From assembly GCA_965215185.1 (NCBI GenBank), contig OZ244034.1:480001-544000 (forward strand): 64,000 bases of DNA, given 5' to 3'. The DNA is from Acidimicrobiia bacterium. Lineage in GTDB: Bacteria; Actinomycetota; Acidimicrobiia; Spongiisociales; ZC4RG35. Positions 29,836 to 43,610 of this stretch are shown one piece after another; positions within the stretch are counted from its first letter, which is position 1; every line of letters starts with the position of its first letter. Below the pieces are notes generated by a model. The model did not search any database and was not told where the DNA came from. It saw only the letters and a program-made list of their open reading frames with translations. A program made the position numbers and the translations under genes.

Positions 29836-30846
29836 ATGGACTGGTCCGAAGTCCTCGGAAAACTGACAACCGGTGTGGATTTGAGCCGCGCCGAAGCGCG
29901 GGCAGCTTTGAACGACATCATGAGTGGTGGAGCAACTGCCGCTCAGACTTCGGCCTTCATAATCTCCCTCCGCATCAAGGGCGAGACCGCTGAAGAGATG
30001 GCGGGGCTGGTAGAGACGATGAGGGCGGTGGCCGTCACGGTTTCCATCGGGGAGGCGGTGGTGGACACGGCCGGCACCGGAGGCGACCGCTCCGGCACCT
30101 TCAATATCTCCACAACTGCTGCCCTGATAGCAGCAGGGGCGGGGGCCAAAGTGGCGAAACACGGCAACCGGTCGGCCTCTTCCCAATGTGGATCGGCAGA
30201 TGTGCTGGAGGCGCTGGGAGTGGGGATCGAACTGGCGCCGGAACAAACCGCAGAGATGGTGCGTGAAGCCGGATTCGGGTTCTTTTTTGCTCCTCGTTAT
30301 CACCCGGCAATGAAATACGTGGTCCCCATTCGCCGACAACTGGGTATACCCACTGTCTTCAATTTTCTGGGACCGCTGACCAATCCGGCGGGCGCCACCC
30401 GTCAGCTGATAGGGGTGTACGACAGCCGGATGGCCGAAAGGATGATCGGAGTGCTATCTCGCCTGGGAACCGAACGCGTCTTGGTAGTCCATGCCGACGA
30501 CGGGCTGGATGAAGTGTCCGTTTCGGGACCTACTCGCGGCTTCGAACTATTAGAAGGACGGATATCCCCCGTTGTGCTGGTTCCAGAGGATTTCGGTGTG
30601 ACTGCGTCGGATGTCTCCGCGTTGGTGGGCGGCGATGCCGAAACGAACGCCCGGATCCTACGTTCGGTGCTCTCGGGCGAGGTGGGCCCCCGCAGAGATG
30701 CGGCGGTAGTTAACGCCGCGGTCACCCTGATGGTGGCCGGATTGGCGGAAACTCCGGTGGAAGGGGCGCGGTTGGCGGCCGGGTCTATTGATTCGGGAGC
30801 GGCGGACCAGGTACTCAACCAGGTAATCGCACTCAGCAGTGTGTGA
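29836..30846 (+). CDS. trpD: Anthranilate phosphoribosyltransferase
   Basis: DTAGTGGD, FNIST, KHGNRS, FNFLGPLTNP, DGLDE. Confidence 0.96.
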   Translation: MDWSEVLGKLTTGVDLSRAEARAALNDIMSGGATAAQTSAFIISLRIKGETAEEMAGLVETMRAVAVTVSIGEAVVDTAGTGGDRSGTFNISTTAALIAAGAGAKVAKHGNRSASSQCGSADVLEALGVGIELAPEQTAEMVREAGFGFFFAPRYHPAMKYVVPIRRQLGIPTVFNFLGPLTNPAGATRQLIGVYDSRMAERMIGVLSRLGTERVLVVHADDGLDEVSVSGPTRGFELLEGRISPVVLVPEDFGVTASDVSALVGGDAETNARILRSVLSGEVGPRRDAAVVNAAVTLMVAGLAETPVEGARLAAGSIDSGAADQVLNQVIALSSV

Positions 30847-30941
30847 TAACCCCAGAGTGGGCACCACTGGCTGAACCCGGGATACGCTGAAGTGTTTCAC
30901 AAAAGGGGTAATGTCTGATCACTCACCTATACTTTTCCAAT

Positions 30942-31631
30942 ATGAAACGCGGCGGGCGCTGGTCAAAGATAGCCGGGTTGCTGCTGGTGGCGATGGTTGC
31001 ATCCTCCTGCGGTGGTGGGGATTCGGGCAGCAGTGAAACGGCGGAGACTGTCGCTGCGGTAACCAGCCCCCCTGAAACCACCACCCCAACCACCTCCGCG
31101 GCGACAGCTGGCACCGCGGCAGTTACCGAAAATTCGCAAGCCGTGCCTGAAACCACCGCTGCCCCCAACTCGACCGCGGCTGAGCCTGCCACCACCACCA
31201 CCGCTGAACCTCTCGGTCCGCCCGCTCCGGATTTCACTTTGGAGTTGGCCAACGGTGGTACGTTCGTTCTCTCGGAGCACACGCAGCCGGTGGTGGTTTT
31301 CTTCTGGGCTGAGTGGTGACCGTCCTGCAAGCGGGAGTTGCCCGCTGTCGACCAGTTGGCAGGAGAGTACGAAGGCCGGGTTGTGGTTGTTGCGCCCGCT
31401 TGGAAGTCCAGTTTGGAAAACACCACTAAGGTTGCGGAAACGCTGCTGCCTTCGGGGAAGGTGTTGTGGGGATTAGATGCGACTCAGGAGATTTTCGCCG
31501 CCTACGGTGTCGGAGGTCAGCCGGCCGGGGCGATTGTCGCTGCTGACGGTTCCCTTGTCTCCACTTGGCGCGGAGCCAGGAACCCCGATGCGATCCGGGA
31601 GGTTCTGGACACCCTGTTGGGTGATGCCTGA
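30942..31631 (+). CDS. Predicted selenoprotein: TlpA/redoxin lipoprotein with UxxC active site (Sec at TGA 31317-31319)
   Basis: Track ORFs 30942-31319 and 31338-31631 share a frame; read-through gives APDFTL..VVVFFWAEW-U-PSC-KRELP; lipobox ASSC; T/A-rich linker; hairpin after TGA. Confidence 0.85.
31320..31364 (+). promoter_or_regulatory. Putative bacterial SECIS element 1
   Basis: Stem AGCGGG/CCCGCT, loop AGTTG 16 nt after TGA; possible lower stem TCCTGC/GCAGGA. Confidence 0.7.
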
Positions 31632-32694
31632 TGAGCCGGACAAGGCTTTCCAAACCCGCCGGCCGGGTGATGATGGCCGTTTGGATTCTTTCCGGGTTGG
31701 TGTGGGGCTCTTGCGGATCCGCTGACACTACCCCGCAAGTGGATACCGCTCCTCCCACGACAACCGCTGCATCCCCAACCGAACAGCCGGTGGAGCCACC
31801 TGCTTCCGATGTTGAGGCTCCTCCCGACGAAAGCGAGCCCTCTCCAACCACCGAGGCGGCAGAGGAGGCTTCGTCCACTCCGACTACTATCGCCGCTGAT
31901 GCCTCGGCTGGGACGGCGACGGACAGCGAAGATACTTCTACCGGTGGGGCCGAAACCACCACCACGGTCGCTCCCACAACTACGGTGGTGACTGAAGATA
32001 CGTATGTCGCCGTCACCACCACCACAGCCGCGGTGGCGACCGACACTGTCACGACCACTACGTCTGCTCCAAGCGCCACGACAGCCGCCCCCACAACCAC
32101 TAGGGCGGCAACTGCAACTACTGGGGCTCCTACTACTACCACGACGGCTGCCCCCACGACCACTACCCGACTACGACTGCTCCCACTACGACTACGACTG
32201 CTCCCACTACGACTACGACTGCTCCCACTACGACTACGACTGCTCCCACGACCACCACGACCGAAGCTCACAATCGGCCTGCCGCTCCCGATTTCACCTT
32301 GGAATTGGGTAACGGGGGGACATTTACTCTCTCTGCGGAGCCTCGTCCTGTTTTCATCGTGTTTTGGGCCGAGTGGTGACCGGCTTGTCAGCGGGAGTTG
32401 CCCGTTATCGATGGTTTAGCCGCCGAGTACCAGGATCGGGTGGCGTTCGTGGCACCGGCCTGGAACGCCAACTTGAGACAAACGCGCCAGAGAGCCGATC
32501 AGCTATTGCGTAGCGGGATAGTGATGTGGGGACTGGACGAGAGCCAGCGGATCTTTTCTGCCTTTAGAGTGCTTGGTCAACCGCAGACAGTCTTGATTGG
32601 AGCCGACAAAACGATTGTCAACCATCTAAGAGGGGAACAGGGTCAATCAACCTTGAGGAACGCCATCGAAGAGCTGCTGGCGATTTCCGGGTAA
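31631..32694 (+). CDS. Second predicted selenoprotein TlpA/redoxin lipoprotein (UxxC, TGA 32377-32379), frameshifted near 32168
   Basis: TGATG coupling to gene 1; WGSC lipobox-like site; T-rich linker; after one-base frame change APDFTLELGNG..VFWAEW-U-PAC-QRELP to TAA 32694. Confidence 0.75.
32168..32251 (+). repeat. 21-bp tandem repeat x4 (TTTTTAP in the downstream frame)
   Basis: CGACTACGACTGCTCCCACTA x3 plus one near-identical copy. Confidence 0.92.
32380..32422 (+). promoter_or_regulatory. Putative bacterial SECIS element 2
   Basis: Stem AGCGGG/CCCGTT, loop AGTTG 16 nt after TGA; possible lower stem CGGCT/AGCCG. Confidence 0.7.
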
Positions 32695-32759
32695 TCCCGT
32701 CCCCGCCAAGTTTCTACCCAACGCGTTTGTCGATCTGACCGAGACATGATCGGGGTTTG

Positions 32760-34154
32760 ATGAGACTCTGGGAATTGCTCCTGACAGGCGCATGCGTTCT
32801 GGCCGTGTTGTGGCCGGCGCTGGAGGGTAGAAGACTGCGCCGAGGGGTTATGGCCGCGGTGCTCCTGGTCGTTCTCGGTCTTCAATTCCTAGTGGAAGGG
32901 TTCCGTTGGCAATTGTGGGGTCTGTACGGCGTGGCGCTGGGAATGGTGTTGGGCGATGTGCTGGTGGGAGAGCGAGAATTGGTTTCGTATCAGCGTATTC
33001 GCAGGGTTGTACTGGGGCTGGTGGGAATCATCCTGGTGGTCGCTCCCGCCTGGGCTCTGCCGGTGGTGGAACTGCCTCCCCCCACCGGTCCCTATCAGAT
33101 CGCCACCGCCACCTTCGAGATTCGCAGTCCGGACCGCCTGGAGGTCTACGGCCCAAAACCGGGACAAGATCGTCGGCTGATGGCCCAGGTCTGGTACCCC
33201 GGCAGGGTCCCGGAAGGAGCCGAACTCCTGAGCCCATGGATAGCCGATCTGGAGGTGGTGGGGTCGGCTCTGTCGCAAACCATGGGCGTCCCCGGGTTCT
33301 TTCTGGACTACACCGCCTATACCTCCTCCCATAGCTATGAGCGAGCTGTCCCATATCAAGGGCAGATTCCGGTGGTCATCTATTCGCATGGCTGGCGGTT
33401 GTTTCGCAACTCGGCGCTGTACCAAATGGAATCACTGGCCAGCCACGGGTATCTGGTGATTGCTGTGGACCACACCTACGGGTCGGTGGCCACCGTTTTT
33501 CCAGATGGCGAAACCGCCCGGCTGGACCCCGAAGCTCTTCCCGATCCCGACGAGGTAGGAGACGAGGCTTTCGAGGAGGCGGCGGTACGGTTGTTGGAGA
33601 CTTACTCTGAGGATCTCCGCCTGATAATCAGGAGCCTGGAGCAGGGAACCAGTGGCCCCTTCGGATCGCTGGCCGCCATTGCCGATATGGACCGGTTGGG
33701 AATCTACGGTCATTCACTGGGGGGAGGAGCGGCTGTCCGAACCTGCCTGGTGGAGACCGTATGTGGGGTGGTGGCGGCGCTGGACGGTTGGGTGGAGCCC
33801 ATCGATTCTTCGGAACTCTCCGGAGAACTGAACATCCCTTCGATGTTCATCCGCTCCGACCCTTGGCGGGAGTTGGAAAACGATCAGGTGCTACGGGGAT
33901 TGGTGGAACGCAGCAACCGGCGAACCTATTGGATCGGCATACAGGACACTGTCCACAGCGATTTGACCATCGCCCCGGTGCTCACTCCTTTGGGTAGTCG
34001 GCTCGGACTAAGAGGGGCCATGCCCGCAGCCCAGGTGTTTGCGATCATCGACCGCTATTTGGTTTCCTTCTTCGATCGGCACTTGCTGGGAGTGGGCGGA
34101 CGAGATATAACTGAGGCGCCTCCACCGGGGGTCTTGTTCGAGTTGATCCCCTGA
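32760..34154 (+). CDS. Membrane-anchored alpha/beta hydrolase (PAF-acetylhydrolase-like)
   Basis: N-terminal TMs, PTGPY, QVWYP, YSHG, LASHGY, GHSLGG nucleophile elbow. Confidence 0.85.
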   Translation: MRLWELLLTGACVLAVLWPALEGRRLRRGVMAAVLLVVLGLQFLVEGFRWQLWGLYGVALGMVLGDVLVGERELVSYQRIRRVVLGLVGIILVVAPAWALPVVELPPPTGPYQIATATFEIRSPDRLEVYGPKPGQDRRLMAQVWYPGRVPEGAELLSPWIADLEVVGSALSQTMGVPGFFLDYTAYTSSHSYERAVPYQGQIPVVIYSHGWRLFRNSALYQMESLASHGYLVIAVDHTYGSVATVFPDGETARLDPEALPDPDEVGDEAFEEAAVRLLETYSEDLRLIIRSLEQGTSGPFGSLAAIADMDRLGIYGHSLGGGAAVRTCLVETVCGVVAALDGWVEPIDSSELSGELNIPSMFIRSDPWRELENDQVLRGLVERSNRRTYWIGIQDTVHSDLTIAPVLTPLGSRLGLRGAMPAAQVFAIIDRYLVSFFDRHLLGVGGRDITEAPPPGVLFELIP

Positions 34155-34176: not shown

Positions 34177-34731
34177 CTAGTTACCACCAAGGATCCGGTC
34201 GATCTCCCTGCCCAACATCAGAGCATTGGAAGGGCCGGCAATTCTCTGGGTGACCTTGCCGTCCGGCCCGATCACGTAGGTTTCAGGCACTCCGAACACC
34301 CCGAAAGAGATGGCGGCTCTGCTGTCAGGATCCGACAGATAGGCAACCCGAGGCGATACTCCCATCTCATTGAGGAAAGCGATGGCGTCATCGGTTCGAT
34401 CCTGGTAAGCGACTTGAATGAGGCGCACTCCCGAACCGAAGAAGGCATCGGCCACTGCCAGGAGGTCGGCGTGTTCCACCCGGCATTCCAGGCACCATGA
34501 GGCGAAGAAGTTGATCAACGTCACCTGCGCCTCCGGAGGCGGTATGGTTGTCTCGGCGGACCCGTCCAGAAGGGGAAGGGTCAAGACCGGAGCAGCAGCC
34601 CCGATCAGCGGAGAGGGGGAAGGCTGGGGGTCTCCTGAGAGGCGAGAAGCGAATACCCCGGCGATCACCGCGGTGGAGATCACGATCAGTGAAGCCAGAA
34701 TCAACCCGGCCCGGCCGCGACTTACTTTCAT
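34177..34731 (-). CDS. ccmG: CcmG/TlpA thiol:disulfide oxidoreductase
   Basis: SPLIG..AP, NFFASWCLECRVEH, FGVFGVPETY; last gene of ccm operon. Confidence 0.85.
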   Translation of the reverse strand: MKVSRGRAGLILASLIVISTAVIAGVFASRLSGDPQPSPSPLIGAAAPVLTLPLLDGSAETTIPPPEAQVTLINFFASWCLECRVEHADLLAVADAFFGSGVRLIQVAYQDRTDDAIAFLNEMGVSPRVAYLSDPDSRAAISFGVFGVPETYVIGPDGKVTQRIAGPSNALMLGREIDRILGGN

Positions 34732-35519
34732 GAGCATTCTTCCTCAGCTTGGGCGGCAGCCAATTCGGAGGCGACCGCGGTCTGAGTTGGCAGGGCTTCT
34801 ACCACTTTTTCCAACAGCGGAACGGCCAGACCGGGCTGGCCCGTCCCGCACCACAGCACTATGGCTTTGAAATACAGAACCTGGGGGTGATCGGGCGCCA
34901 CTCCCAGAGCGCGGTCCAGGGTTTCTATGGCCAGTTGAGCTTCTCCTGATCCCGCCCAGGCCATCCACCCCAAGTGGCCCAGGGCTTCCGCCTCCTCACC
35001 CGGGGTCGGATTACGTTCCAGCACTCCCCGGTATTCAGTGAAGGCCCCCGAGAAGTCCCCGGCCTGAAAGTAACGGGCGGCCAAGGCCAGACGCATCCCG
35101 TTTATCTGGGGGTGCTCGGCGTTGGCGGCGATGACCGCCTCCATGGTCTCGTTGGAATACTGCGAGGGATCGAAATCTTCGCCGTTGCCCACGGGCTGCT
35201 CATCTGGTTGGGTAAACCATTCCACCGTGACCACCAGCGTTAGGGCCGCGATTGCGAGCAGAGCGGCAATCACCGCCCTTCCCTGGGTCCAGAACGGTGT
35301 TGACTTTTGGTCCTCCTCGGTGGTCTCCGGGTTCCTCATGGCGGAGGAGGTTGTCTCGGACAGCCTCAGCCTGGCTCTTTCCATCTCTTCCAGGTACAGT
35401 TCACGCAGCCTCTGACCGGTATCGGGAGGGATTTCGTTCTCGTCCAGTTGCTGTTGCAGCTCTTCCAAGTCGCGGGCGGCTTGGGCAAGCCGGGCTTCCC
35501 ACTTTTCATACTCGTTCAC
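34728..35519 (-). CDS. CcmI/CycH-like TPR protein
   Basis: RDLEELQQQLDENEI coiled coil, TM, TPR-like helices; operon position. Confidence 0.75.
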   Translation of the reverse strand: MNEYEKWEARLAQAARDLEELQQQLDENEIPPDTGQRLRELYLEEMERARLRLSETTSSAMRNPETTEEDQKSTPFWTQGRAVIAALLAIAALTLVVTVEWFTQPDEQPVGNGEDFDPSQYSNETMEAVIAANAEHPQINGMRLALAARYFQAGDFSGAFTEYRGVLERNPTPGEEAEALGHLGWMAWAGSGEAQLAIETLDRALGVAPDHPQVLYFKAIVLWCGTGQPGLAVPLLEKVVEALPTQTAVASELAAAQAEEECS

Positions 35520-35947
35520 GGCGACTCACCAGAATCTGCAGAGGAGGCGGGTCTTCTTAGACGGGAGAGGGCCAGGCCCACTCCCGTCAGCAAGGCCGCC
35601 AAGGGCAGGGCCCACAACAAGGCAGTGGTGGCGCTAAATGGGGGATCAAGCAACTGGGAGTTGGGGTAGGAGGCCATCAGCCGATCGAGGACCTGTTGCT
35701 CGGAGAGGCCCTGTGCCACCATCTCTCGCACATAGGCCATCATGTCGGCCGCATAGGAACTGGGCGACTCGGCGATTGATTCACCTTCGCACGCCGGGCA
35801 TCGTATCTGCTTGCCGATGTTTTCGGCGCGATCGGTCAGCGCCGGGTCAGCGTTGAGTAACGAAACCACCACGAATAAGCCGAGCGCGATGGTGATCAGG
35901 GGAGAGACCCAGCGGAGAGGGCGGGGCGTTTGCGACAGGTTAGACAC
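35516..35947 (-). CDS. ccmH: Cytochrome c biogenesis protein CcmH
   Basis: IRCPACEGESIAES, LLDPP, LLWALP. Confidence 0.9.
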   Translation of the reverse strand: MSNLSQTPRPLRWVSPLITIALGLFVVVSLLNADPALTDRAENIGKQIRCPACEGESIAESPSSYAADMMAYVREMVAQGLSEQQVLDRLMASYPNSQLLDPPFSATTALLWALPLAALLTGVGLALSRLRRPASSADSGESP

Positions 35948-37997
35948 CTGCACGCGCCGTTTCCCTGGAGGACAGGGAGGATGATTTGCGGCGTCTTCTG
36001 CCCCGAAGGGAATACAGACCGCCAGCCGCACAGGTTAGCCCCCCCAACCACAGCACCCATTGCAAGGGAGCGGTGGCCACCCGCAAGGTGATGCCCTGTT
36101 GATCGATACGCGTCACGCTCAGATAGAGGTCTTCTTTCCAGGTACGGTGGATGCCGGGAGTGGCTATCGGCAATGCCAAGTTCTCAAATCGGCTAAGGGC
36201 CGGTTCCGCCCGTCCCCGTAATTCGTCGTTTCTCCAAATCTCCACGAGAGCGGAGCTTTCCAGTCGATTGGGGGTTCTGGCGGTGGACACGCCCGTATGG
36301 ACCAGTTCGTAGCCAGCGAATTCCACCCTATCTCCGGGCGCCATCTCCACCCGGTCGAGAGTCTGCCCCAGGTTCGAGGTGGCGGCGATTGCCACTGCCA
36401 CCAAAGCCACTCCGGCATGCGCCAACTGGCCGCCCCAATAGCCCCGATCAGATCTGATCACTCTTGCCACGGCGCTCCTGAGAGGGACGGTCCGCGCGGT
36501 TGCCACCCTTTGGGACTGCATCCAGAGACGGTTGCCCCCCACCGCCACCACCCAGGTGCCGGCTATCACGGCCAGCACCGCGTACCCCACCGAGGTGGTG
36601 GTGATGATCACCAGGGCTCCGGCCCCGAGCGCCAGTTGGAGAGGCAGACGAAGGCGAGGCCACACAACGCTGGGTCGGGCCACCCGCCAGGGCAGGGCGG
36701 GTCCCACACCCATCGCCAACAGCAGTGCAAAGCTGATCGGAACGGCCAAACGATCAAAGAAAGGCCGCCCAACTCCAACTTCGGAGCCGGTGAAGGCTTC
36801 CAGTACCAGCGGATAGAGGGTTCCCGTCAACACCACCAAGGCATAGACCGACAACAGCAGGTTGTTGACCAAAAAGCCTCCCTCCCGGCTGGAGAGCGAC
36901 TCCAGCCGAGGGGGTGAGGAGATCTGCGGGGAACGGACCGCAAACAAGACAAAAGATCCCACCACCACCACCACCAAAAAGCCCAGGAGCGCCGGGCCGA
37001 TAGGTGATTGGGTAAAGGAATGGACCGAGGCGATCACCCCCGATCGAGTCAGGAAGGTGCCCAGGATGGTCAGAGAGAAAGCTCCGATCACCAATACGAA
37101 ATTCCAAGCCTCCAACATTCCTCTTCGTTCTTGAACCAGGGAGGAGTGCAGGAAGGCGGTGGCCACCAACCAGGGCATGAAAGAGGCGTTTTCTACCGGA
37201 TCCCAGGCCCAAAACCCTCCCCAACCCAGCACCTCATAGGCCCACCAGGCGCCCAGGGTGATACCCGTAGTGAGAAACACCCAGCTCACTCTGGTCCACA
37301 GGCCGCTTCGGCGAAGCCACTGAGCACCCATCTGGCCAAGGGCCAAGGCTGAGATGCCGTAGGCAAACGGAACGGTCAACCCCACATAACCCAGATACAG
37401 CAGCGGGGGGTGGATGGCCATCAACAGATGGTTCTGCAGGAGCGGGTTTGGTCCCGCGCCATCTGCTGGACCCACGGCGGCAGAAAAGGGAAAGGGGCTG
37501 GAAGCGGCGCAGGAACGGGCGGCGGCCTCGACACACACTTCGAAGGGGTTGGCCACCGTTGCCATAAGTCCAAAGAAGAAGACCCCAACTGCCCCGATCA
37601 CCGCCAAGGCCCCCCAGTCGAGGGTGTCCGGTTCGGTCTTTCTGGTGGTTGCTCTTCGCCACACTGCGTAGGCGTAAGCGGCAAGTACCAGCCCCCACAA
37701 GACTATGGAGCCTTCCAGGGCCGCCCAGGCGGTGGCGATGTTAAAGGGAAACGGGGTGTAGCGAGAGTGGTGGTCGGCCACATAGGAGATGGTGAAGTCG
37801 TTGACCAACAGGGCAGTCTCCAAGATGACCATGGCGCCCAGAGCGGCGAAGACCATGCCATAAAGGGATCGTCGGATGGTGGCGGTGGAATGGGATGCAG
37901 ACGACCGGCTTCGAGCCGCCCGCCACGAGGTCACCGTCAGCCCGGCCGAGGCTGCCAACGCCCCCCACACCGCCAAGGTACCGGCGAGCGAAAGCAT
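35940..37997 (-). CDS. ccmF: Heme lyase CcmF
   Basis: HPPLLYLGYVG, WAYEVLGWGGFWAWDPVENASFMPW, TRSG..SVHSF. Confidence 0.96.
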   Translation of the reverse strand: MLSLAGTLAVWGALAASAGLTVTSWRAARSRSSASHSTATIRRSLYGMVFAALGAMVILETALLVNDFTISYVADHHSRYTPFPFNIATAWAALEGSIVLWGLVLAAYAYAVWRRATTRKTEPDTLDWGALAVIGAVGVFFFGLMATVANPFEVCVEAAARSCAASSPFPFSAAVGPADGAGPNPLLQNHLLMAIHPPLLYLGYVGLTVPFAYGISALALGQMGAQWLRRSGLWTRVSWVFLTTGITLGAWWAYEVLGWGGFWAWDPVENASFMPWLVATAFLHSSLVQERRGMLEAWNFVLVIGAFSLTILGTFLTRSGVIASVHSFTQSPIGPALLGFLVVVVVGSFVLFAVRSPQISSPPRLESLSSREGGFLVNNLLLSVYALVVLTGTLYPLVLEAFTGSEVGVGRPFFDRLAVPISFALLLAMGVGPALPWRVARPSVVWPRLRLPLQLALGAGALVIITTTSVGYAVLAVIAGTWVVAVGGNRLWMQSQRVATARTVPLRSAVARVIRSDRGYWGGQLAHAGVALVAVAIAATSNLGQTLDRVEMAPGDRVEFAGYELVHTGVSTARTPNRLESSALVEIWRNDELRGRAEPALSRFENLALPIATPGIHRTWKEDLYLSVTRIDQQGITLRVATAPLQWVLWLGGLTCAAGGLYSLRGRRRRKSSSLSSRETARAGV

Positions 37998-38404
37998 CAG
38001 GAGGAGGAGTTATCTGTGACTGACGGAGCCTGATAGTTCTCATCGTGGGAGATGAGAGCTCCATCGGCTCGGTAGTCATCACCCCGCCAGGCGCCGTCCA
38101 ATAGCACGTTGACGTCTTCGTCGAAGAGCAAAGGGGGAGTGTCGGTGAGAATCACCGGGATGGTGGAAGCGCCGTCGGTGATTTGGAATCGCAGCGGGTC
38201 GGCACCTTCCTGCAGGGAACCTTCAACCACGATTCCTGCCAGCCGGAAGCGTCGCCCGTCGGGGAAATCGGCCCGTTGGGCAACCGCTTCGCGAGGGGTT
38301 AGATAGTAGACAAGGTCACTTCCGATGTTTTGAAGCAGGAAAAACCCGGCTATGAGGATGGCCAGCCCTGCTGAGATCAGAAACGGCCAACGGCGTTGTT
38401 TCAT
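37997..38404 (-). CDS. ccmE: Heme chaperone CcmE
   Basis: YYLTP.E, RLAG.V.EGS, HDENY heme-binding motif. Confidence 0.92.
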   Translation of the reverse strand: MKQRRWPFLISAGLAILIAGFFLLQNIGSDLVYYLTPREAVAQRADFPDGRRFRLAGIVVEGSLQEGADPLRFQITDGASTIPVILTDTPPLLFDEDVNVLLDGAWRGDDYRADGALISHDENYQAPSVTDNSSS

Positions 38405-38514
38405 CACTCTCGGGGGTCCGTTGCCCTCCGCCATCGCACCGCCAAGCGGAGGATGTAACCCGCCAGAATTACTCCCGTGGCCAGATAAGCCGCCCACACC
38501 CAGCCGATGCTCAA
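38404..38514 (-). CDS. ccmD: Heme exporter protein CcmD (36 aa), not in ORF track
   Basis: MSIGWVWAAYLATGVILAGYILRLAVRWRRATDPRE*; TTG overlaps ccmC stop, stop overlaps ccmE start. Confidence 0.75.
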   Translation of the reverse strand: MSIGWVWAAYLATGVILAGYILRLAVRWRRATDPRE

Positions 38515-39215
38515 GCTTTTGCCTGTCCCAGTTGGGGAGCGGAGACCGGGCTATGGACGGTCAATTCCACAGTGCCAACTGCCTCTTCCAGGCGGGCGAG
38601 TTCCGTGCGGAAAGCCAGTAGCGTCACGTAGAGCAATGTGAAGGCTGCCAGGTTCACCAGCAGCGCCACGACCATTGCTCCTTCCATCTGGATACCGTCG
38701 GGGCGGATGGTCAGACCTTGATGGAGAGTGCGCCAGAGCTTCACCGAAAAATAGACGAGGGGGACCTGCACGACGGCCACCGCTCCCAACACCGCCGAGC
38801 GTCGCGCCCGCAGGTGTTGGTCGACAGTGGTGCGACGCAGGGCCAGGTAACCGATGTATACGAAGAACATCAGGGCGGTAGTGACCAGGCGGGCGTCGCC
38901 CCAGTCCCAGTAGGTGCCCCATACCGGCTTTCCCCAGATCATGCCGGTGGCCAGAGCCACCGCGGTGAACAGCACTCCCGTCTCGGCGGATGCCTCGGCC
39001 ACTCGATCCCAACTCATCCGCCTGAAAAACAGCCATCCGATGCTGGCCGCGGCTGTCACCCCGAAAGCCAGGAACGCAAGCCACGCCGAGGGAACATGGA
39101 TATAGAGGATGCGCACGAAATCGCCTTGGAAAGCATCGGGGGGCGAGGTGAAAGCAGTGACCAGTCCCCCTCCCAGAGCCGCGGCGGTCACTGTGACCAA
39201 CAGCCTCTTTTTCAC
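38511..39215 (-). CDS. ccmC: Heme exporter CcmC
   Basis: RILYIHVPSAW, WGKPVWGTYW..DARL, WRTLHQ. Confidence 0.95.
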   Translation of the reverse strand: MKKRLLVTVTAAALGGGLVTAFTSPPDAFQGDFVRILYIHVPSAWLAFLAFGVTAAASIGWLFFRRMSWDRVAEASAETGVLFTAVALATGMIWGKPVWGTYWDWGDARLVTTALMFFVYIGYLALRRTTVDQHLRARRSAVLGAVAVVQVPLVYFSVKLWRTLHQGLTIRPDGIQMEGAMVVALLVNLAAFTLLYVTLLAFRTELARLEEAVGTVELTVHSPVSAPQLGQAKA

Positions 39216-39886
39216 AGGGCGATTTCCTCCAGAGCCCGAGCCGACATGACTCCTGCGGCCGCCAGGCCAAGATCGGCGATAACCAACACCAGTACCCAAG
39301 CGATGATACTCCTGTCCGCAATCAAACTTTCCAGCGCCTGGGAAGCTCCCATTAGCAGGGGAGTGGCCAGCGGCGCCATCAGGAGGGGAGCGAGGCTGGT
39401 GCGGGCCCGCAGCCCGGTGGTCACATCCGCGGCTAGAGTGCCAAGCAGCGACAGTCCCACCGTGGCCAAGCCGATGACCGGCGCCATGAGCCATGCTCCG
39501 GTGGGCGCCCGGTAGTCGTAAAAGACGATCACCGGGATCAGCAGTGTTCCAGCCACTGTGGTCAGGATCAATGCGGAGGCGGCCGAACGGCCCGCGAAAC
39601 GGGCGGCCGGATCGAGGCCGGTGAGGGCCAGGACCCGTCGCTGGGTAGATGTCTCCAAAGCTGTCTGGCGGAAAACGATCATCATTCCAAACAGCAGGGT
39701 GATCAACCAGTACACAGGGGCGGCCAGATCACGAAGCAACATGGGAGATGCGTTCGTGGCCAGGGGCACCACCCAGGTGGCCACCACGGCGAAGGGAAAC
39801 ACCACTGAGTAGGCCTCGCCGCTTCTGACCTCAACCCGCAGGTCGCGGCAGGCGATGATTCTCGCTGACTTCCAGAACCCGGTCAT
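39212..39886 (-). CDS. ccmB: Heme exporter permease CcmB
   Basis: RDLRVE.RS, LLMAPLATPLL; six TMs; position between ccmA and ccmC. Confidence 0.85.
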   Translation of the reverse strand: MTGFWKSARIIACRDLRVEVRSGEAYSVVFPFAVVATWVVPLATNASPMLLRDLAAPVYWLITLLFGMMIVFRQTALETSTQRRVLALTGLDPAARFAGRSAASALILTTVAGTLLIPVIVFYDYRAPTGAWLMAPVIGLATVGLSLLGTLAADVTTGLRARTSLAPLLMAPLATPLLMGASQALESLIADRSIIAWVLVLVIADLGLAAAGVMSARALEEIAL

Positions 39887-40596
39887 GCAATTTGTCCATT
39901 CGAAATCTCCACCACTCGGTGCGTCCAAGACGACAGTCGGGCGGGATCGTGAGAGACGCACAGCGCTGCCCCTCCCCGGCTGGTGGTTGTTTGGATGAGA
40001 TGGTCGACGATCAAAGCCGCGTCTCGGTCCAGCCCGGCGTCGGGTTCGTCGAGCAGCAGGAGGCGGGGGGCGCCGATCAGCAGCCGGGCCAGGTCGGCTC
40101 GGCGTCTCATTCCGTTGGAGCAGCGTTCCGCTCGGATGCCCGTGGCGCCGGCCAAGCCCACCTTCTCCAGGGCCAGATGGCCCACCCCGGCGGGGTGTCC
40201 ACTCAACTGTGAGGTAAGGGCCAGATTTTCGCCGAGAGTCAGATCGGGATAGAGCGCCGGGAGATGTCCGGACCAGCCAATCTGCGAGCGCACCGCCGGA
40301 GTTTGGGAGGCGCCCAACGGAACCCCCAGCACGGTCCCCGAACCTGCGGTAGGAGCGATGAAGGTGGCTATCACAGCCAACAGCGTGGACTTGCCGGCGC
40401 CGTTCGGTCCGGCCACACCCAGCGACTCGCCGGGCTGGAGAGTGAGGTTGCAACGCGAAAGCACTCTGACGCCGCCCAAGGAAACGGAGAGATCAACCAA
40501 CTCGACCAGTGGGGCAACGGGGGACGGGGTTTGGGCAGCTGATAGGTGGGCCACTCGCTCTGAGTGTATGGGCTTTTGCTGTGCAGGCGCTCCCAT
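39883..40596 (-). CDS. ccmA: Heme exporter ATPase CcmA (start uncertain)
   Basis: GPNGAGKST, GH..ALYPDLT..ENL, S.GMRRR..LARL, LLDEP. Confidence 0.88.
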   Translation of the reverse strand: MGAPAQQKPIHSERVAHLSAAQTPSPVAPLVELVDLSVSLGGVRVLSRCNLTLQPGESLGVAGPNGAGKSTLLAVIATFIAPTAGSGTVLGVPLGASQTPAVRSQIGWSGHLPALYPDLTLGENLALTSQLSGHPAGVGHLALEKVGLAGATGIRAERCSNGMRRRADLARLLIGAPRLLLLDEPDAGLDRDAALIVDHLIQTTTSRGGAALCVSHDPARLSSWTHRVVEISNGQIA

Positions 40597-42193: not shown

Positions 42194-42346
42194 AAGGGAG
42201 TGGTTGGTGACTGGGATGGACACCGACCTGTCGGGGCAATTGTAGACCGTTCGACCAATGCCAAACACCTGCTTAGTTGGCACAGCGTGGTTTGTGAAGA
42301 AGATGGTCATGTATGAGATTTTGGGTGCATAACATCCTGATTGGCA

Positions 42347-42841
42347 ATGAATAGGAAAATGGCGGTCTTGGGTGTGCTGGTGGCCGTGTTGACGGCCAGT
42401 TGCGGTTCGGATCCGGGCGCAACCCTCGAAGCGGTGTCGGTCCCCGACAAATTGAATTGGATCACCCCCGAGGAGTTGTCGGAGGAGTTGGCCCTAGGCC
42501 CGGCGGCGGTGGTGAACTTCTGGGCTTCGTGGTGCGGCCCGTGCCGGGCGGAGGCGCCGGTACTGCGGAAGGCTCATCAAGATTACGGCGACAGGGTGCG
42601 GTTTATCGGGGTGGCGGTGGACGACACTGCTTCCGGAGCTTTCGACTTCATGGAGTCGTATGGGATCACCTTTGAGAACTATTTGGGGGATGGCGGTCCC
42701 ATGATGGCGCAATACGAGGCTTTTGGCATTCCTTTTACCGTGTTCACCGATACGGCCGGAGAGGCGCTTTACGTTCATCGCGGGATAATTGATGAGGACC
42801 TCCTCCTCCTGTGGACCGATGAACTTTCCCGTCTCGGTTGA
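42347..42841 (+). CDS. TlpA-family disulfide reductase lipoprotein (CxxC)
   Basis: Lipobox TASC; NFWASWCGPCRAEAP; GIPFT. Confidence 0.9.
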   Translation: MNRKMAVLGVLVAVLTASCGSDPGATLEAVSVPDKLNWITPEELSEELALGPAAVVNFWASWCGPCRAEAPVLRKAHQDYGDRVRFIGVAVDDTASGAFDFMESYGITFENYLGDGGPMMAQYEAFGIPFTVFTDTAGEALYVHRGIIDEDLLLLWTDELSRLG

Positions 42842-42935
42842 CGGTGGAAAGCTCAACGCCATCCTTGTAGTAGGGTGCCGTCGTCTCGTTAAGGATGCTT
42901 TGCGGCAAGAGTTTGACGGCCACACGGTGCTTTAG

Positions 42936-43610
42936 ATGGATCTGACGCTGCTGGGACGGGTGGTGGGCGCCATGCTCGCCGCGGCTTTGACTGTGCGGGC
43001 GCTCAGGGGAAGGCGGCCTCCGGAATTTTCGGAGCCGTTCAACGATTTGCTGGGTGCCGTGCTGGTGGGGATGGCGGCAGGGCGCCTGGCCTATGTGGTT
43101 GGAGAGGGAATCAACGTCATCGCTCATCCACTTGAGTTGGTACTGATACGCGGCGGCATTGTTCCTGTGCCTGCAGCTATGGCGGCCATTGGTTTCTTGG
43201 TTTGGGCCTGCCGCCGTGATCTGTGGAGCCGCTTGGATCATCTTGTTCCGGCGGCGCTGGTCGGGTTGGCGGTATGGGAGGCCGGGTGCTGGTGGCAGGG
43301 ATCTTGTCTGGGTTCGCCGTCCGGTCTGTGGTGGGCAATTGCCCTGCCGGGCAGCAACCTCACCCGTCACCCGGTGGGCATGTACGTAGCCGTGCTATTG
43401 GTTGCGGCGGCGATTTGGCTGTGGAGGCGCCCTCTGCCCTGGAGTGGGGGCAGTGCCGCGGCCGGGCTGGGATGGGCGTCGGCTGTCCGGTTGATGGTTC
43501 CCATTTGGTCGGTGGGGGGTTGGTCCAATTGGACATGGTGGTATCTGGTGGGCTTGGTCCTGGGTCTGGGTGGGGTGGTGGCGGCGCGGCACAGATCAAA
43601 GGGCCGATAA
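42936..43610 (+). CDS. Lgt-like (prolipoprotein diacylglyceryl transferase family) membrane protein, divergent
   Basis: GRLAYV, IRGG, G.CLGSPS.LWWAI..PG, RHPVGMY (compare Lgt HPSQLY). Confidence 0.7.
   Translation: MDLTLLGRVVGAMLAAALTVRALRGRRPPEFSEPFNDLLGAVLVGMAAGRLAYVVGEGINVIAHPLELVLIRGGIVPVPAAMAAIGFLVWACRRDLWSRLDHLVPAALVGLAVWEAGCWWQGSCLGSPSGLWWAIALPGSNLTRHPVGMYVAVLLVAAAIWLWRRPLPWSGGSAAAGLGWASAVRLMVPIWSVGGWSNWTWWYLVGLVLGLGGVVAARHRSKGR

Follow-up and report, generated by a model that had tools for sequence, protein, structure and literature searches.

Two tandem TGA-interrupted genes for putative selenocysteine-containing TlpA-like lipoproteins in an Acidimicrobiia genome

Within a stretch of 64,000 nucleotides (nt) from an Acidimicrobiia bacterium (GenBank assembly GCA_965215185.1, contig OZ244034.1, positions 480,001 to 544,000; hereafter the window, in whose numbering positions are given) lie two neighbouring genes for thioredoxin-fold proteins, here called gene 1 and gene 2, each carrying a TGA codon where the first cysteine of a W-C-x-x-C active site would be expected. 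The locus raises the question of whether these codons end translation or are decoded as selenocysteine (Sec). An earlier reading of the window, made from its letters alone (the sequence-only reading), took the genes for a pair of extracytoplasmic selenoenzymes that open reading frame (ORF) callers had split, and held random decay to be unlikely. The computational analysis described here supports that proposal through the Sec machinery of the genome, conservation of the TGA among relatives, homologs with cysteine in its place and purifying selection on the sequence beyond it. On these comparisons, both genes very probably encode genuine selenoproteins with Sec in a U-x-x-C active site, and their products are read as lipid-anchored, tethered extracytoplasmic thiol-disulfide oxidoreductases that would use a selenolate as nucleophile, lipidation being predicted from the lipoboxes.

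Conservation of the TGA codons and the selenocysteine machinery

Redoxin sequence continues in frame past the TGA for 103 codons in gene 1 (motif F-W-A-E-W-U-P-S-C; TGA at 31317) and for 104 codons in gene 2 (W-U-P-A-C; TGA at 32377). The two genes overlap at TGATG (31629-31633), where the ATG of gene 2 meets the stop codon of gene 1, and both have a lipobox signal, a linker rich in Thr, Ala and Pro (T/A/P; long, Thr-rich and about 190 residues in gene 2) and a redoxin domain (Table 1), an architecture already described in the sequence-only reading. The genome, a single contig of 3.12 Mb, holds selA (405 bits) adjacent to selB (310 bits), as well as selD (388 bits, with an in-frame TGA of its own) and a tRNA-Sec (78 bits; anticodon TCA by ARAGORN), and all four scores are above the curated cut-offs.

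The TGA is kept throughout the order. Among 40 relatives, a denominator that includes the unpublished genomes G027 and G038, 32 have a TGA-bearing homolog (exactly one TGA, E<=1e-30): all 16 genomes of the same genus, 6 of 8 from elsewhere in the family and 10 of 16 from other families of the order. Orthologs of gene 1 itself, with one TGA each, are present in 16 of 16 same-genus genomes. In every one of 42 copies from the own genome and 19 relatives, the TGA occupies the first position of F-W-A-E/D-W-U-x-x-C, and 15 loci fetched at the level of the order added 14 more copies with TGA at that codon, from 14 of those loci, which brings the total to 56 of 56 copies read, in 33 genomes of the order. 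In the fifteenth locus (L161, genome G034) the filters used picked up no W-[UC]-x-x-C motif.

Coding constraint continues downstream of the TGA, where purifying selection is observed. The ratio of nonsynonymous to synonymous substitution rates (dN/dS) beyond this codon is 0.36 for type A of the paralogs in the genus, 0.175 for type B (to which gene 1 belongs) and 0.216 for type C (gene 2), at dS of about 1, and the domain of gene 2 gives 0.15-0.39 against its orthologs. Cysteine aligns to the TGA site in three kinds of comparison: in the Cys forms P0007-P0010, in the PDB alignment (first Cys of W-C-S-I-C) and in an ortholog from another genus of the same family (G024), which reads FWAEW-C(TGC)-PVC and matches in architecture and in its downstream neighbour. 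For selB, matches came from 38 of the 40 relatives, all but G024 and G035. In G024 there was no match to selA or selB, and the tRNA-Sec model scored no higher than 50 bits there. Replacement of Sec by Cys in a relative without a selA or selB match constitutes a clean natural Sec/Cys exchange tied to the Sec machinery.

A conserved hairpin downstream of each UGA

A hairpin resembling a Sec insertion sequence (SECIS) follows each UGA, its stem beginning 10 nt past that codon and its apical loop reading AGUUG. Across 56 sequences the stem cells are paired in 88.4% of cases, a level that drops to 63.5% or less once the partners are shifted along the sequence. Five of the seven stem pairs change on both sides, a result reached by 1 of 500 shuffles, and the covariation score of 0.305 compares with 0.149±0.015 in shuffles and was reached by none of 500. 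RNAalifold recovers the same stem unaided; the 69-nt alignment contained no second conserved hairpin. Compensations are found at synonymous sites (CAG→CAA opposite GUU, cGa opposite guC, and CAG opposite CCU), and codon choice within the stem is frozen: all 40 of 40 copies have CGG for its Arg (31% usage in the genome) and 88% have TTG for its Leu (20%), whereas conserved Arg, Leu and Pro residues at other positions are encoded by four to six codons. The case for the hairpin is thus a comparative one, from which we infer that the element is a bacterial SECIS.

In Escherichia coli fdhF the SECIS is a SelB-binding hairpin immediately 3' of the UGA, with its start some 10-11 nt past that codon. 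The hairpins of genes 1 and 2 resemble it in lying within the coding sequence, in their similar distance from the UGA and in having G and U in the apical loop; they differ in being of unrelated sequence, made here of the codons for K/Q/R-R-E-L-P. The hairpin 3' of each UGA would be bound by SelB·GTP·Sec-tRNA(Sec), and the ribosome would insert Sec rather than terminate, placing it at the nucleophilic first position of a thioredoxin-fold U-x-x-C.

Fold, family and predicted function

The best Pfam match of both genes is AhpC-TSA (PF00578; 54.2 bits for gene 1 and 44.2 for gene 2, cut-off 26), the second is Redoxin (48.2 and 39 bits), and the Pfam match extends across the TGA. In an AlphaFold model of the domain of gene 1 (135 residues; predicted local distance difference test, pLDDT, 94.1), Sec is at position 32, directly before a helix at 33-48, in line with a TlpA/ResA/DsbE-like thioredoxin fold that has the TlpA-type insertion and its redox motif at the N-terminus of helix 1. 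The top folds in the PDB are Bacillus subtilis ResA (1st9; template-modelling score, TM, 0.88) and Mycobacterium tuberculosis DsbF (3ios; TM 0.86), with Streptococcus pneumoniae Etrx1 and M. tuberculosis DsbE (1lu4) completing the top four at TM 0.82-0.88; with CcmG included the fold matches range over 0.79-0.88. A profile search agrees with the likeness to ResA, DsbF, DsbE, Etrx and CcmG (E-values 4e-16 to 4e-11 for the ResA, DsbF, DsbE and Etrx proteins). ResA, DsbF, DsbE and Etrx1/Etrx2 (4hqs, 2yp6) share the fold with the predicted products (TM 0.82-0.88, root mean square deviation 1.6-2.0 Å), have a membrane or lipid anchor and bear W-C-x-x-C in the corresponding position. They differ in having Cys, not Sec, as the nucleophile, and identity is only 22-29%. 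Reductases of the ResA, DsbE and Etrx types have roles in cytochrome c maturation and in the reduction of methionine sulfoxide reductases (Msr).

No NCBIfam model reaches its cut-off for either gene. By these models neither gene is an ortholog of ResA, TlpA or DsbE/CcmG proper (49.6 bits against 170, 31 against 230 and 33.2 against 123, respectively). The 'UGC-containing TlpA' family with its WAxxUGC motif (NF041054) does not fit either, with 24.7 and 21 bits against 300 and a motif here of U-P-S/A-C, and the 'thiol-disulfide isomerase-like' domain PF13905, at 25.5 and 23.5 bits, stays under its cut-off of 27. The NF041057 model (Rcas_1661 family) gives 17.9 bits against a cut-off of 190, which makes that a different family.

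Among described selenoproteins, the closest kind is the 'Prx-like thiol:disulfide oxidoreductase' (Prx, peroxiredoxin) that review tables characterize by PF00578 and UxxC or UxxU (PMC9312934, PMC13188914), the same kind as the 'Prx-like protein' of the Sargasso Sea paper (PMC1088965), which lists 22 Prx-like and 4 isomerase-like selenoprotein sequences; a 2016 survey tabulates the Prx-like family and gives the figures 28 and 32 for it. Genes 1 and 2 are like these in their best Pfam domain, in a thioredoxin-type UxxC (UPSC and UPAC), in being split by gene callers and in having Cys homologs. They are unlike them in being lipoproteins with long Thr-rich tethers and in forming tandem paralogs in an Acidimicrobiia genus, features that the descriptions of the family consulted here do not mention. 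By the rule of domain plus motif alone, and not by comparison with a reference protein, both genes would fall under the Prx-like UxxC family.

The same review tables also list a 'Thiol-disulfide isomerase-like protein' (PF13905, UxxC) and the 'UGC-containing TlpA' (PMC9312934, PMC13188914). The isomerase-like selenoproteins, which are known from aquatic metagenomes, share with our two genes the UxxC motif and a TlpA-like thioredoxin fold; as PF13905 scores below its cut-off, theirs is not the best label under the naming by domain that the reviews use. A table in PMC13188914 further includes NF041057, the Rcas_1661 thioredoxin-like (seleno)lipoproteins, beside a row for a 'DsbG-like protein', and an exported, lipid-anchored UxxC selenoprotein is in this respect already a curated concept. 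Among the titles and abstract openings listed for Acidimicrobiia selenoproteins and for UxxC TlpA proteins, none describes the present clade; supplementary survey tables may list members. The selenoprotein kind has been predicted since 2004-2005, and these two are additional members of it. Modestly new are the expansion to three paralogs with graded tethers in one genus and the prevalence of Sec across the order.

Both genes and their orthologs have lipoboxes. The export machinery is represented by a gene of the prolipoprotein diacylglyceryl transferase family (Lgt-like) in the window and by LspA elsewhere in the genome, where one DsbD_TM/CcdA homolog is also encoded, at C1:1343698-1344273. 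The products would thus be lipoproteins, each with a lipobox Cys, a Thr/Ala/Pro tether and a redoxin domain outside the cytoplasmic membrane. The selenolate would attack substrate disulfides or oxidized Cys/Met-repair enzymes, and the resulting selenenylsulfide with the resolving Cys would be re-reduced through a membrane electron shuttle of the CcdA/DsbD type. Provided that the proteins are selenoproteins, we favour this assignment as extracytoplasmic thiol-disulfide reductases with a selenolate mechanism and CcdA/DsbD-type recharging, by analogy with the structural relatives, though with some reserve.

The chief competitor to this functional assignment is that the selenoproteins act as surface peroxidases akin to glutathione peroxidase or Prx, and not as protein disulfide reductases. 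AhpC-TSA is the best Pfam domain, other Sec candidates of the genome are of antioxidant type (Prx-like, CMD/AhpD-like and UGSC; see below), and Sec resists irreversible over-oxidation. Against this, the nearest folds and profiles, those of ResA, DsbF, DsbE, Etrx and CcmG, belong to protein disulfide reductases and not to peroxiredoxins. Moreover, the motif is a thioredoxin-type W-U-x-x-C, and the Sargasso Sea paper itself sets the UxxC of the Prx-like proteins against the TxxU of Sec-containing Prx (PMC1088965). We therefore regard a peroxidase role as doubtful, although it is the strongest of the alternatives weighed here.

Competing explanations and genomic setting

A near-cognate tRNA that reads the UGA as Cys or Trp, or a reassignment of TGA, would likewise allow both frames to be translated, and a Cys at the site would make a normal CxxC enzyme. 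This is highly improbable. TGA is the commonest stop codon of the genome, ending 800 of 1459 long ORFs with gene 1 among them, and the code is therefore not reassigned. The genome has the full Sec machinery and a covarying hairpin at SECIS distance, and the only lineage that lacks a selA/selB match and has TGC at the site (G024) lacks the hairpin as well, its codons AAG-GAG-CTG-CCG forming no such structure.

Decay would be suggested most directly by gene 2 as deposited, where a nonsense mutation at the TGA would be joined by a second lesion. The sequence-only reading had presented gene 2 as a single frame broken only by the TGA, which is not so, a one-base gap after 32167 having been overlooked. 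In the deposited sequence the signal and linker stand in a different frame from the redoxin domain: the frame from the ATG at 31631 turns to nonsense (TTTTRLRLLPLRL...) and ends at 32419, and the redoxin frame is open back only to about 32100. Logan contigs of four public runs (X1, X5, X8 and X19) were aligned to the region. The gap coincides with the start of a 21-nt repeat, and an extra A is present there both in a 2498-nt contig of X1 (depth 17.7 of 17.7), possibly the sample from which the genome originated, and in one 60-nt contig of X5, which comes from a different study; ...ACC|CG ACT... becomes ...ACC ACG ACT..., and the linker and redoxin frames are joined. Contigs of X8 and X19 do not cross 32167 and are uninformative on the frameshift. 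The gene 1 TGA is identical in contigs of all four runs, none of which alters either TGA. X19 is an RNA library with three contigs, 92-98% alike, that cover both TGAs; these may come from relatives or from DNA, and were counted as no evidence of expression.

Because contigs of two studies restore the frame through the extra A, the frameshift of gene 2 is, on these sequences, an assembly error or a strain variant and not decay. Of 19 type C copies, 16 keep a single intact frame all the way from the lipobox to the stop codon, one sits at the end of a contig, and only those of the own genome and of G011 are out of frame. The G011 copy (L024, G011:C10) loses its frame inside the Thr-rich linker, which would fit decaying pseudogenes, as would the fact that public gene calls hold fragments only. 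The TGA, however, stands at the same codon in all 56 copies across the order, and dN/dS past it is 0.18-0.36 at dS of about 1. Comparison of the homologous sequences has in this way already refuted decay for the TGA, by conservation and selection together, and we consider it almost certainly wrong for the two genes.

In run X8, from a strain of another study, there is an in-frame insertion of 12 nt (four codons) after 31075 in the gene 1 linker, and the length of the tether is thus variable within the population.

The remaining explanation takes the existing annotation at its word. As the sequence-only reading had surmised in calling the genes split, public records hold 97-residue and 98-residue C-terminal fragments of both as separate proteins, together with 27 clusters of look-alike fragments of 72-116 residues, of which two of the four with a named source are called 'hypothetical protein'. 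No full-length Sec form was found among 5.8 billion proteins (E<=1e-10), where the four full-length relatives are all Cys forms, and a search of contigs with the Cys-form pattern (FWAEWCxxC) gave only distant Cys homologs, at most 38% identical over at least 70 query residues. That translation stops at each TGA and that separate ORFs, from TTG 31338 and TTG 32398, make the recorded 97-98-residue proteins is scarcely credible, given that neither half is a complete thioredoxin fold and the model needs both, that the Pfam match spans the TGA, that the C-terminal piece is without signal peptide and active site, and that the supposed TTG starts are the Leu codon of the conserved R-E-L-P motif and of the hairpin loop.

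Several observations weigh against the interpretation of genes 1 and 2 as selenoproteins with a reductase function. The folding energy of single hairpin sequences is insignificant (z -1.40 and -1.35; 17 and 24 of 200 shuffles fold as well), and an Rfam scan of 30800-32800 at E<=10 returned no SECIS family, giving only four chance matches to microRNA, long non-coding RNA and small RNA families. The hairpin overlaps much of the conserved coding motif C-x-x-C-[KQR]-R-E-L-P, and, the hairpin sequences being kin, the number of compensatory changes that arose independently is lower than the cell counts suggest. The deposited gene 2 is frameshifted, and the contigs of X1 and X5 that restore it both end in the repeat 29 letters past the gap, where the bridging rule is 31 letters. 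G035 has two TGA copies and a tRNA-Sec of 80 bits, yet selA and selB were not found in its assembly of 120 contigs; as these genes are adjacent in the own genome, one missing contig could explain the gap. Function, electron donor and substrates are assigned by analogy only, and the Sec-TlpA genes are adjacent to neither ccdA nor msr genes.

Use of Sec in this genome extends beyond the locus. The in-frame TGA of selD (C1:1864217-1865137, minus strand; G-A-G-U-G-C-K, 15 codons past the start used in the scan) would make selenophosphate synthetase itself a selenoprotein here. A genome-wide scan gave 246 read-through candidates by a codon-usage filter, of which 20 were selected by visual inspection for a Cys, Ser or Thr close to the TGA and then examined, and in 3 of these a Pfam domain spans the TGA: an AhpC-TSA protein (C1:1081139-1081810; G-D-W-U-P-Y-C), a UGSC-family protein (C1:2387316-2388104) and a CMD/AhpD-like protein (C1:1993353-1993901; C-H-Y-U). 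Together with SelD and the two TlpA-like genes this makes at least six Sec candidates, a lower bound. The view of the sequence-only reading that Sec in Actinobacteria is mostly a matter of formate dehydrogenase is a poor fit to this lineage, where SelD and the Prx-like, UGSC and CMD/AhpD-like candidates are found as well; the scan was made without a search aimed at formate dehydrogenase. A 2026 preprint gives about five selenoproteins per genome in another Acidimicrobiia order, and the word TlpA is absent from its main text. A different kind of TGA-bearing frame, of 375 codons, occurs three times on the minus strand (C1:1647199-1648326, C1:2652777-2653904 and C1:984066-985193). Its copies have a common 13-residue context, with the TGA after codon 31 (…PPKLED-TGA-TMFVIG…), and agree in the lengths of their segments; they have the look of a mobile element present in several copies.

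The genus has up to three tandem paralogs that differ in the distance from the lipobox Cys to the domain, with tethers of 7-8 residues in type A, 40-100 in type B and 120-217 in type C; of these the own genome lacks type A, and other genera have a single copy with a tether of 22-52 residues. In a tree from a quick search only, the three types group together at the level of the genus, with type A branching from within type B, and four Cys forms stand at three places among the Sec forms (Shimodaira-Hasegawa-like approximate likelihood-ratio support 83-95), a scattered placement that is suggestive only.

The pair is flanked by trpD (29836-30846) on one side and by a membrane hydrolase resembling platelet-activating factor acetylhydrolase (32757-34154) on the other. 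Just past the hydrolase lies a convergent System I cytochrome c maturation cluster (34177-40453, minus strand) with a CcmG-like WCLEC redoxin, a TPR/CcmH-like protein, CcmF, CcmE and CcmB. Four WhiB genes assign the genome to Actinomycetota. Actinobacteria usually use System II, and System I in this genome may be unusual for the phylum. Apart from the pair, the window has two TlpA-like genes, both of the Cys type, WCLEC (34177-34737, minus strand) and WCGPC (42341-42841), as the sequence-only reading had stated; in the interval 42341-43610 the latter, a lipoprotein with the lipobox LTASC, lies directly upstream of the Lgt-like gene (47.9 bits).

Table 1. Positions of the parts of genes 1 and 2 in the window.
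Feature	Position	Strand	Basis or remark
Gene 1 (type B), predicted Sec-containing TlpA-like lipoprotein precursor	30942..31631	+	229 residues, Sec126; read-through frame
Gene 1 start ATG; stop TGA	30942; 31629-31631	+	sequence
Gene 1 signal peptide and lipobox (…LLLVAMVASS-C23)	30942..31010	+	sequence; lipobox kept in type B orthologs
Gene 1 lipobox VASSC, Cys23 codon	31008-31010	+	sequence
Gene 1 linker, T/A/P-rich, 71 residues	31011..31223	+	type B linkers 40-100 residues
Gene 1 thioredoxin-fold (TlpA/ResA-like) domain	31224..31628	+	Pfam, fold model, fold matches, profile search
Gene 1 predicted Sec codon TGA, first position of U-P-S-C	31317..31319	+	in-frame, conserved
Gene 1 SECIS-like hairpin AGCGGG-AGUUG-CCCGCU	31330..31346	+	conservation, covariation, frozen codons
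Gene 2 (type C), predicted Sec-containing TlpA-like lipoprotein precursor	31631..32694	+	about 354 residues, counting the missing base after 32167
Gene 2 start ATG; stop TAA	31631-31633; 32692-32694	+	sequence
Gene 2 signal peptide and lipobox (…LSGLVWGS-C28)	31631..31714	+	sequence, orthologs
Gene 2 lipobox VWGSC, Cys28 codon	31712-31714	+	sequence
One-base gap of the assembly	32167..32168	+	extra A between these bases in X1 and X5 contigs
21-nt tandem repeat, 4.5 copies (TTTTTAP units of gene 2 linker)	32168..32261	+	sequence
Gene 2 thioredoxin-fold (TlpA/ResA-like) domain	32284..32691	+	Pfam, dN/dS
Gene 2 predicted Sec codon TGA, first position of U-P-A-C	32377..32379	+	in-frame, conserved
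Gene 2 SECIS-like hairpin AGCGGG-AGUUG-CCCGUU, one G-U pair	32390..32406	+	conservation, covariation

A broader proposal, which we put forward as speculation and think rather improbable, is that Sec is ancestral and prevailing in the order and that the three paralogs of the genus, with tethers of about 7, 40-100 and 120-217 residues, form a selenium-dependent layer of redox or peroxide defence at different depths of the envelope. The graded tethers do suggest that reach within the envelope matters. The analysis also draws attention to a single base at which a finished genome is either in error or represents a variant strain. The envelope redox enzymes of a whole Acidimicrobiia order are invisible to standard annotation pipelines, because their genes are recorded as fragments and full-length Sec forms are not found among the public proteins searched. 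Should the broader proposal hold, these bacteria would use selenium as a micronutrient for redox homeostasis of the envelope.

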